NCBI GenBank assembly: GCA_963741715.1
Contig: CAVUJA010000003.1
Coordinates: forward strand, 167,854-231,853
Direction of reading: 5' to 3'
DNA length: 64,000 bases
Source: an uncultured Acidobacteriota bacterium
GTDB taxonomy: Bacteria > Acidobacteriota > Vicinamibacteria > Vicinamibacterales > Fen-181
The notes below the pieces were generated by a model. The model saw only the letters and a list, made by a program, of their open reading frames with translations. It had not been told where the DNA came from and made no database searches. Of the stretch, positions 47,842 through 48,921 are shown piece after piece. The position numbers and the translations under genes were made by a program. Every line of letters starts with the position of its first letter. The first letter of the stretch is position 1.

Positions 47842-48921
47842 CTACCGCATCTCGATGTAGTTGGTCGGGCACTGCTCCGCGCACTTGTTGCAGCCCTGGC
47901 AGAACTCCAGCTTGAACCGGTACGGCTGCCCCTTCTCGAGCGGCCTGACCACCGCCTGATCGGGGCAGTACTTCCAGCAGTTGTCGCAGTCGAAGCACGC
48001 GCCGCACGTCAGGCATCGCTGCGCCTCGTGGACGGCCGCCTCGGGCGTCCACGTCTCGCCCGCCGCCTCCGTCCGCGGCGACCTGGCGTGGTAATCGAGG
48101 AGGATCTTGCTCTTGTCCACCGGCGGCAGCCCCGGCCTCGGCTGGATGGCGGCGCCCCGGGCTTCCGCGTCCAGGAGCTCCGCGGCGTGCCGGCCGAAGT
48201 GGACCGCGGCAGCGATTCCGCCGAGTGCCACGGCCGTGCCGCTCTCGTAGACACTCGTCTTGATGACGCGGCCCGGCGCCGTTCTCTCGGCTGCGGCGAC
48301 ATCCGACGAGCCGGCGAAGGTCACGCCCAGGGCGAGGATGCGTTCGACCTCCGCGTCGAGCACCGGCCGCGGCAGCCGTTCGGCAGCCACACCGTAGCGC
48401 AGTTCGCCGCCCGCCTCCGGGTGCGGATCGGCCAGCCTCACCTCGTGGCCGCGCCGCGCCAGCTGATACGCGGCGGACAGGCCTGCCGCGCCCGCCCCCA
48501 CCACGGTCACCGTCACGGGCGACGGCGCCGGCTCCAGCGTCCGCAGCGGCCAGGCGGCGTTGATCGCGGCCTCGGCAATCGCCCGTTCCACCTGACTGAT
48601 CGACACGCCGCCGTCGTACGGATCGCGCGTGCATCCGGTTTCGCAGTGGTGCGGGCACAGGCGCCCGAGGACGGCGGGAATGGGATTCCTGTCGGCGATG
48701 ACGTAGAACGCCTCCTCGATCGCCTGCGCCTGGGTCAAGCCGCGCTCTCCGCCTTTCGCGAGCGCGGTGAGGAAGCCGCGCACGTCGGTGCCGCACGGGC
48801 AGGCGTGCGAGCACGGCGGCTCCTTCGCCACGAACACCGGCCGTGCCGACGACGTTTCACGCGCGCCAGCGCCTGCGCCCCCCCGCGCCCCCAGCTTCCT
48901 GACCTTCTTCACCAGCGCCAT
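47842..48921 (-). CDS. dsrL: Short DsrL-like iron-sulfur flavoprotein lacking the NAD(P)H-binding domain
   Basis: [36 protein letters not shown]-terminal [19 protein letters not shown] / [12 protein letters not shown]. Only 359 aa, with no second GGGN Rossmann fold or YRR motif. Confidence 0.75.

Follow-up and report, generated by a model that had tools for sequence, protein, structure and literature searches.

DsrL is commonly read as the link between NAD(P)H and the dissimilatory sulfite reductase DsrAB, and its subtypes (1A, 1B and 2A-C) serve as markers of the direction of sulfur metabolism (Loffler 2020, Diao 2023 and others). DaDsrL-2 of Desulfurella amilsii has been characterised biochemically as an NAD(P)H:acceptor oxidoreductase that is specific for NADP(H) (Loffler et al. 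2020), while the DsrL-2 of organisms with a reductive DsrAB correspond to the DsrL-2C of Diao et al. 2023. Acidobacterial DsrL has been reported to be shorter than the A. vinosum protein and to hold the same functional domains (Hausmann 2018). The gene described here comes from an uncultured acidobacterium of the order Vicinamibacterales (GenBank assembly GCA_963741715.1, contig CAVUJA010000003.1, positions 167,854 to 231,853). This stretch of 64,000 nucleotides, called the window below, has a G+C content of ~70% and carries on its minus strand, at 47842..48921, a dsrL of 359 codons followed by a TAG stop. The gene, identified by Pfam, NCBIfam and protein-cluster searches and termed the short dsrL (type 'S1'), encodes a relative of DsrL-2 from which the NAD(P)H-binding domain is missing.

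The short DsrL shares with DsrL-2 and DsrL-2C a common descent, an N-terminal two-cluster domain with its Ser/Arg replacements, the GxGxxG start of the FAD domain and the C-terminal FAD helix, as well as the C-terminal 2x[4Fe-4S] ferredoxin, the MxxxKKVxK N-terminus and a neighbourhood of dsrAB and a DsrD-like gene. It differs from them in being ~200 residues shorter, in having neither the NAD(P)H Rossmann domain nor the YRR motif and the ATG strand, and in not conserving the Asp of the GD motif. The names ATG and GD, and the roles attached to them, are those in general use for the two-dinucleotide-binding flavoproteins. The full-length forms nearest to it in identity and gene order belong to NC10/Methylomirabilota, Tectomicrobia, Chloroflexi and one acidobacterial metagenome-assembled genome (MAG). 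The two-cluster domain and the FAD Rossmann start are also found in the N-terminal module of NfnB, GltD and dihydropyrimidine dehydrogenase, and the best structural and sequence matches over residues 34-205 are 8oh5_C, 9bov_A, 9n5u_A, 5vj7_A, 4ylf_B, 5jca_L, 2vdc_G and 1gth. Unlike the short DsrL, these three proteins carry an inserted NADPH domain, and NfnB and GltD are without the C-terminal ferredoxin. A small subunit of the GltD/NfnB/SudA type is ruled out by the lack of an NADPH domain, the C-terminal ferredoxin, the dsr linkage and the phylogenetic tree.

A DsrL devoid of its NAD(P)H domain is not mentioned in the main texts of Loffler 2020 and Diao 2023 (their supplementary tables being outside this statement), nor in the accessible parts of DiSCo, Ferreira 2022 and the Flieder 2020 preprint. 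A full-text search for shortened or DsrL-like forms, with subscription-only papers outside its scope, returned none. No description was found, and such a protein appears to be undescribed in the literature searched.

Architecture of the short DsrL

Pfam analysis of the 359-residue protein recognises Fer4_20 at residues 32-121, only the first beta-alpha-beta element of a Rossmann fold at residues 138-176, and a 4Fe-4S dicluster domain (Fer4_21/Fer4_7) at residues 308-358. The best NCBIfam model, PRK12771 ('NAD(P)-binding protein', 566 positions), aligns in two separate blocks, residues 21-208 falling on model positions 34-211 and the C-terminus on positions 491-563; ~280 positions (212-490) are left without a match. 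An earlier note on this DNA had proposed that the N-terminal Fe-S region, the GxGxxG motif and the C-terminal double ferredoxin are kept, and that the open reading frame (ORF) is without a second Rossmann fold. Pfam and conservation agree on the former, and Pfam, PRK12771 and the alignments to full-length proteins on the latter.

The protein starts with MALVKKVRK, an N-terminus conserved family-wide. Its first unit is a GltD/NfnB-type domain with candidate ligands for two [4Fe-4S] clusters (residues 21-125, 48547..48861, on the minus strand as are all parts of the gene), delineated by Pfam Fer4_20, conservation and an alignment to NfnB 4ylf_B. It is followed by the remnant of an FAD-binding Rossmann domain (residues 130-256, 48154..48534; Pfam, conservation, AlphaFold2 and profile-profile alignment), formed in order by β1-αA-β2, α-β3, a remodelled α-β unit and a C-terminal helix with an invariant G243-R244. 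Within this remnant, alignments place the junction at residues 204-221 (48259..48312), where ~187 residues of the full-length DsrL-2 are gone. It is the part most variable in both sequence and length, with 13-44 residues across the short clade. A linker (residues 257-295, 48037..48153), defined by alignments and by the ratio of nonsynonymous to synonymous substitution rates (dN/dS), leads to the C-terminal 2x[4Fe-4S] ferredoxin domain (residues 296-359, 47845..48036; Pfam and conservation).

The extent of the missing segment was defined with MAFFT alignments and with a profile-profile alignment of 81 short against 64 full-length sequences. In the latter, residues 1-212 are colinear with full-length residues 1-212, T222 then falls on T402 and SVYESGT on NTFAGGD, and T229 occupies the position of the GD-motif Asp. 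The helix GRHAAELLD aligns with GRRAAE, the C-terminal FAD-domain helix of the full-length forms. The lost segment (full-length columns 213-399) comprises the strand bearing the ATG-type motif (AIFVGIGA), the GGGDTA NAD(P)H Rossmann domain in its entirety, LYRRT included, and the strands returning to the FAD domain. Some 15 residues (VPVEQRFxDPDxEVNLG) have also gone from the linker that precedes the ferredoxin domain, and the short DsrL has no second GxGxxG/A. YRR is found in 89 of the 95 full-length relatives, the six others forming one Methylomirabilis-like group, versus one of 81 short forms; its absence from the window protein, already pointed out in the earlier note, reflects the deletion of this region. 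The pyridine-nucleotide site is lost because the domain that holds it is missing, which upholds the earlier view that nucleotides are not used directly. Judged from its sequence, the 359-residue polypeptide cannot accept hydride from NAD(P)H by itself.

The AlphaFold2 model of the short DsrL (81-row alignment) is compact, with a pLDDT of 83.0, a pTM of 0.82 and block means of 85-98 over residues 121-260. The model of a full-length sister (64 rows) has a pLDDT of 86.3 and a pTM of 0.86. Secondary structure is identical in both up to strand 201-203. After residue 203, the short form continues with a helix (208-214), a strand (218-221; block-mean pLDDT 89-98) and a long helix (233-255); the full-length counterparts of the first two are helix 214-220 and strand 223-226. 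Going by secondary structure alone, the junction seems to be remodelled into an α-β unit that would complete a four-stranded sheet. The helix and strand modelled within residues 204-232, the short divergent linker of the earlier note, indicate that this stretch is not floppy.

Conservation was counted over 85 short and 95 full-length rows. In the short forms S24, R27, P28, C37, C41, P42, R48, C89, C93, C97 and E112 are kept at 93-100%. The glycines of GxGxxG (G142, G144 and G147) are invariant in the short clade and D165 and G171-G172 are 99% conserved, as are ferredoxin cysteines C309, C315 and C351; the seven others (C303, C306, C312, C319, C341, C344 and C347) are invariant. In all, 18 cluster-ligand positions, eight N-terminal and ten ferredoxin Cys, are kept at 93-100%. 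The N-terminal ones were mapped with a phmmer alignment to Thermotoga NfnB 4ylf_B (C37 = Cys47, C41 = Cys51), assuming a 5-residue insertion, and with the ligand list in section 18 of Loffler 2020. The mapped positions account for all eight ligands of the two clusters: S24, R27, C37 and C97 are candidate ligands of the distal cluster, and C41, C89, C93 and E112 of the proximal one. S24 and R27 stand at the places of Cys39 and Cys42; R27 (99% in short forms, 98% in full-length relatives) is followed by P28, as C42 is by P43 in NfnB. A Ser/Thr plus Arg pattern is given in section 18 of Loffler 2020 as that of DsrL-2 from organisms with a reductive DsrAB, and the S-x-x-R pair of the short DsrL matches this signature.

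Several substitutions are fixed in the short clade (E165D, M173E, P145A, C150A, G116A/D117E and Q320P). Relaxed positions are I178, P179, Y181 and R182 of the YGIPxYR loop, which are 95-100% conserved in the YGIPxYRLP loop of full-length forms, together with G227, C353/G354 and D229. The ADP-binding half of the dinucleotide site looks constrained, while its flavin end and the parts facing the NAD(P)H domain do not.

The short DsrL family and domain loss in other lineages

A search of 5.8 billion proteins listed 120 clusters. Among these matches, 81 (query included) are 340-395 residues long, aligned with full coverage and 45-85% identical; 29 others have 519-586 residues and 10 are shorter pieces of 251-336 residues. 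Wherever a source is named, it is Vicinamibacterales or Acidobacteria, apart from one 'Planctomycetes' and one 'Rhodospirillaceae' partial record. Of 78 loci that represent one species each, seven hold short genes (355-373 residues), ~67 full-length genes (544-581 residues) and four fragments or frameshifted genes; a single-protein metagenome scan gave 18 loci, four of them with short forms. At one locus (L069, 6001-7657) a full-length dsrL is apparently frameshifted, with a 395-residue ORF and a C-terminal match outside it. The window-type clade comprises 85 sequence clusters of 351-390 residues, down to ~45% identity. The short dsrL is a member of a large, old and species-rich family and not an artefact. 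Homologs of ~360 residues, for which the earlier note had suggested a search, thus exist in number, and its preference for an old remodelling over an assembly deletion is sustained by the same architecture and junction recurring in many clusters and genomes.

In a FastTree phylogeny (187 rows, 276 shared columns) with the genome's own GltD-like paralogs as outgroup, the short DsrL lies in the ingroup with 95 full-length proteins; named DsrL-1 and Desulfurella sequences are absent from this tree. The 85 short forms make up one clade with an SH-like support of 100 and a long stem (0.38), and the short clade has an SH-aLRT of 97 in IQ-TREE (LG+C20+F+G4, 82 rows). FastTree places it inside an NC10-type clade (joint clade of 118 rows, support 95), IQ-TREE near the base of the ingroup with a weak support of 71, so that the two trees differ on its exact sister group. 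Both trees group the protein with DsrL-2 and not with the GltD-like paralogs, a grouping with GltD or SudA being the possibility that the earlier note had raised.

Pairwise dN/dS values (NG86) between the closer species are 0.18-0.28 over the whole gene, at dS of 0.32-0.88, and speak for purifying selection, not decay. By region, the ratio is 0.18-0.25 in the N-terminal cluster domain, 0.10-0.31 in the Rossmann remnant and 0.10-0.17 in the ferredoxin domain. The linker is almost neutral (0.47-1.11 in close pairs). For the two most distant relatives the ratio rises to 0.39-0.53, with dS probably compressed by G+C bias.

Loss of the NAD(P)H domain occurred independently in at least two other lineages, with differing boundaries and gene order. 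The Planctomycetota short form is represented by two clusters, L023/P0122 (373 residues; L023 6001-7119) and P0123 (349 residues, 80% identical, from another source). It keeps ...DAVHVDLGVQQG and then jumps to the C-terminal helix, so that the ATG strand is kept and the GD strand lost along with the same linker segment. Its gene order is dsrKJOP-ABD-L, and it nests among full-length Planctomycete DsrL (SH-aLRT 98-100). The second acidobacterial short type occurs in two genomes from the family of the window's genome (L105, 404 residues, 6679-7890; L106, 427 residues, 6457-7737) and in clusters P0243-P0249, P0327 and P0353, amounting to at least 10 clusters of 397-427 residues, down to 46% identity. 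It keeps the FVATG (ATG-type) and GGD motifs; only the NAD(P)H domain is gone, with a short variable spacer in its place. It has the order dsrABD-L-C-MKJOP and nests in the full-length acidobacterial clade (SH-aLRT 98 and 100). A single origin of all short forms is rejected by the approximately unbiased (AU) test (delta lnL 146.7, p = 2e-7), the group tested having been named after the tree was seen. These two forms are like the window type in joining a two-cluster domain, a Rossmann remnant and a ferredoxin, in residing in dsr clusters and in the lack of AprA; the YGIPxYRLP loop and the same linker segment erode in all three lineages. They are unlike it in their independent origin, their other boundaries and the order dsrABD-L(-C) versus dsrL-dsrABD.

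A library of 50%-identity representatives yielded 23 matches of 330-430 residues among 146 new matches listed. Seventeen of them have ferredoxin motifs and fill just 2-42 of the 161 NAD(P)H-domain columns; in a FastTree of 117 rows, seven are scattered over several places within the DsrL-2 ingroup and ten lie on the outgroup side. Known from sequence without genomic context, these 17 proteins are leads only. The ten outside the DsrL-2 ingroup, P0392, P0394, P0403, P0420, P0425, P0439, P0444, P0446, P0463 and P0466 (366-422 residues), combine a single GxGxxG with a two-cluster domain and a ferredoxin at the C-terminus. A neighbouring GltD-like family may thus have undergone the same loss. The ESM Atlas holds clusters of 279-397 residues with Fer4_20, several of which also have NAD_binding_8, in several phyla.

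The dsr cluster and the rest of the genome

The short dsrL heads a minus-strand cluster that, with the regulator upstream of it, reads regulator, short dsrL, dsrA, dsrB, DsrD-like ORF, dsrC, dsrMKJOP, DsrN-like gene and cysG. The regulator directly upstream (48953..49831; Pfam and locus comparison) joins a MerR-type helix-turn-helix (HTH), an XRE-type HTH and a cupin; three related loci (L011, L012 and L088) likewise have a match to it in the 6 kb ahead of the short dsrL, though at a distance of ~0.9 kb in L012. A 77-nt spacer with period-7 tandem repeats (47765..47841) separates the short dsrL from dsrA (46580..47764, 394 residues; TIGR02064, 565 bits, above cut-off). Then come dsrB (45428..46510, 360 residues; TIGR02066, 531 bits, above cut-off) and an ORF of 83 residues (45072..45323). 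This ORF is called DsrD-like because it follows dsrB and keeps its place and sequence across nearly all related loci; searches of Pfam and of PDB, by sequence and by a 20-sequence profile, gave no DsrD match for it and only a weak winged-helix match. The gene dsrC (44709..45026; TIGR03342, 114 bits) encodes 105 residues ending in ...PTGCV. It is followed by dsrMKJOP (39326..44510), where DsrM, DsrJ, DsrO and DsrP score above the NCBIfam cut-off and the C-terminal part of DsrK gives 385 bits, by a dsrN-like amidotransferase gene of the CobB/CobQ type (~37896-39323; family search) and by cysG (36443-37888; NCBIfam, above cut-off), all on the minus strand.

Linkage to dsrA is general. In 10 of 10 testable loci (the window, L009-L014 and L087-L089), tblastn with the Dsr proteins of the window finds dsrA immediately downstream of the short dsrL, the neighbourhood in which the earlier note had suggested looking for short homologs; L090 ends at the contig edge and is untallied, and L013 has partial dsrA/dsrB matches only (7222-9549). 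DsrA and DsrB of the carriers are 84-94% identical where the match spans most of the gene, the partial DsrB match of L013 being at 78%. The full-length relatives fetched as loci also lie nearly all in dsr clusters, with two gene orders. The order dsrL-dsrABD-x-dsrC occurs in NC10/Methylomirabilota, Tectomicrobia, Chloroflexi, Omnitrophota and one acidobacterial MAG, the other being dsrABD-(x)-dsrL-dsrC-MKJOP. The window cluster is nearest to the former group by gene order, by ~50% identity over the N-terminal part of DsrL and by a DsrA/DsrB identity of 76-80%, compared with 66-72% to the other acidobacterial type.

Period-7 tandem arrays of 3-7 copies, with differing units, fill nearly every intergenic spacer of the dsr operon (37858-37883, 43537-43586, 44543-44705, 45044-45062, 45394-45425, 46521-46571 and 47763-47838) and occur in other spacers as well (7514-7564, 8965-8997, 11369-11397, 11833-11883 and 61864-61904), making up 18 of the 62 TRF rows in the window. 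They resemble the heptamer STRR repeats of cyanobacteria. An open frame of 2053 residues (29749-35910, minus strand) contains MTHFR domains and all domains of a B12-dependent methionine synthase, and is a fusion or, alternatively, an ORF that extends too far in DNA of high G+C content.

The assembly consists of three contigs (5.67 Mb, 100% completeness). It encodes five other GltD-type proteins, namely a 988-residue fusion, a 637-residue protein whose gene lies beside a cytochrome b gene, and three without a C-terminal ferredoxin. All five have complete NAD(P)H domains and are 31-41% identical to a DsrL-2; the 988-residue and 637-residue paralogs, the two that were inspected, lie outside dsr contexts. 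Neither the family search nor the tree, in which the paralogs form the outgroup, revealed a second, full-length DsrL in this genome, in answer to a question raised by the earlier note. A search with the deleted segment found no separate NAD(P)H-domain gene, matching only inside the paralogs, apart from one weak match (E 9e-4). Among 61 genomes of the same order, nine carry the short type of the window (seven of the same genus including this one, two of other genera of the family), and none of these nine has a second DsrL-type match with a ferredoxin domain.

No AprA (TIGR02061) and no Sat (TIGR00339) were found in this genome, and its matches to Xsc are at paralog level only, below the cut-off. 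AprA is found in none of 12 short-form genomes versus 11 of 13 with a full-length relative, in three independent contrasts; this is an observation and not a statistic, kin not being independent and the groups having been set after the first result was seen. The 12 comprise nine genomes of the window type (77-100% complete), two of the second acidobacterial type (100% complete) and one Planctomycete; re-tested genomes judged the same as six of the nine were counted once. On the full-length side, AprA occurs in four of five genomes from this order, each time 10-14 kb from dsrL on a shared contig (the exception being 83% complete), in two of three of the dsrL-ABD type and in five of five Planctomycete relatives. 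One genus holds two dsr cluster types, the short dsrL-ABDC without apr and dsrABD-full dsrL-C (G004:C1/L108 and G005:C110/L107); aprA is on the contig of dsrL in G004, and a search of G005, which is 83% complete, yielded no AprA. The DsrA proteins of the two types share only ~70% identity, which argues that at least one was probably acquired by transfer and suggests separate acquisitions.

Proposed function and alternatives

The reading favoured here, with somewhat more confidence than doubt, is that the short DsrL acts as an NAD(P)H-independent Fe-S electron-transfer subunit of DsrAB. It would be an iron-sulfur protein derived from DsrL-2, co-transcribed with dsrAB and dedicated to sulfite reductase. 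Its four [4Fe-4S] clusters, an N-terminal and a C-terminal pair, would be joined by the compact Rossmann remnant, and electrons would pass between them; FAD, or at least an ADP-containing ligand, may sit in the remnant between the two pairs. One end would dock on DsrAB, as the ferredoxin domain of DsrL is thought to do, and the other would take electrons from a protein donor, such as a low-potential ferredoxin, a flavodoxin or another redox complex, and not from a pyridine nucleotide. We infer the binding to DsrAB, the redox activity, the type of donor and any retention of flavin from sequence. Since the second acidobacterial type keeps every flavin motif, an iron-sulfur flavoprotein that works independently of NAD(P)H seems viable within this family. 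A complex prediction with DsrA, DsrB and residues 257-359 of the short DsrL gave a score of 0.00, the fold of the latter being itself uncertain in the prediction, and weighs neither for nor against docking.

Some observations weigh against this reading. In full-length relatives the flavin half of FAD is bound by residues that are here either missing or weakly conserved, and the ATG strand is deleted, so the middle of the presumed wire may be empty. At the GD position (D229), where Asp is 100% conserved among full-length forms, the 81 short forms have Thr 43 times, Ala 11 times and Asp just 8 times; FAD binding is doubtful for that reason, and the chances that the window type retains a flavin appear about even. 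Besides, dsrK (minus strand) carries a 1-nt frameshift, an extra base near 42836. The DsrK of an intact relative is matched over residues 41-273 in a first frame (43535-42837) and over residues 274-576 in a second (42835-41927), whereas the dsrK matches of L011 and L012 are in one frame. The pathway may be impaired in this genome, or the extra base may be an assembly indel. Lastly, no candidate gene for an electron donor was found linked to the cluster in the window.

A wider proposal, possible but clearly less probable than the favoured reading, is that DsrL has shed its NAD(P)H module repeatedly, as an adaptive switch that goes with a 'sulfite-only' Dsr lifestyle, without Sat and Apr. DsrAB would have been rewired from NADPH to a low-potential protein donor, and the short DsrL would be the minimal electron-entry subunit, a four-cluster adaptor with or without flavin.

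It is unlikely that the enzyme has been split, with the NAD(P)H site supplied in trans by a docking protein (a paralog of the GltD/NfnB type or an NfnA-like reductase) on the face exposed by the deletion. In its favour, complete NAD(P)H domains are present in the five GltD-family paralogs of the genome, the ADP-binding fingerprint shows strict conservation, and NfnAB and glutamate synthase, relatives of the same fold, act as hetero-oligomers, as their PDB titles convey. Yet the NAD(P)H-domain matches all lie inside full-length paralogs on other contigs and in unrelated contexts, with no stand-alone gene among them. None is linked to the cluster in the window, and the related loci, queried with Dsr proteins and the regulator only, are not covered by this statement. 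The erosion of the YGIPxYRLP loop in all three short lineages suggests that the hydride-transfer site itself has been abandoned.

A structural, assembly or regulatory role, in which the subunit would occupy the DsrL docking site of DsrAB or sense redox state through its clusters without catalytic flux, deserves a similarly low degree of belief. It would fit the relaxed flavin-binding residues of the short clade, and there is a precedent in DsrD, a small accessory protein that acts allosterically on DsrAB according to Ferreira 2022. The absence of AprA from the carriers and of Sat from this genome also means that the role of the pathway may differ from classical sulfate respiration. Against a non-redox role, the 18 cluster-ligand positions are retained despite divergence to ~45% identity, the pattern expected of working electron-transfer clusters, and the second acidobacterial lineage loses only the NAD(P)H domain while keeping every FAD motif.

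Slow decay is less probable still. It would hold that the dsr cluster became dispensable once sulfate activation was lost and that the short dsrL is a remnant, like the frameshifted dsrK. The distribution of AprA and the dsrK frameshift are compatible with it, as are the small size of the Planctomycete short lineage (two clusters) and the unequal length of its members. Low dN/dS ratios at substantial dS between species, a frame intact in 85 clusters of an old and species-rich clade, the close similarity of DsrA and DsrB among carriers and the single frame of dsrK in L011 and L012 all oppose it. An assembly or gene-calling artefact, to which a three-contig assembly with at least one probable indel (in dsrK) might lend some colour, is refuted for practical purposes by the same architecture and junction in 80 other clusters (JGI, ENA, NCBI and Logan) and in eight other species genomes of the family.

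A widespread DsrL without an NAD(P)H domain breaks the inference from the presence of DsrL to an NAD(P)H link, and surveys by HMM or BLAST that are blind to domains still score the short forms as 'DsrL'. The carriers of the window's clade are Vicinamibacterales-type Acidobacteriota of soils and wetlands. The coincidence of domain loss with the absence of AprA in every lineage examined suggests a functional tie between the supply of sulfite and the reduction of DsrAB. Under the favoured reading, that of an electron-transfer subunit independent of NAD(P)H, the short DsrL points to an as yet unknown electron-feeding route to sulfite reduction, and the short DsrLs make a small and tractable system in which to seek the protein from which DsrAB receives its electrons. 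If the adaptive switch is real, their partners could reveal the long-debated physiological electron donor of DsrAB.

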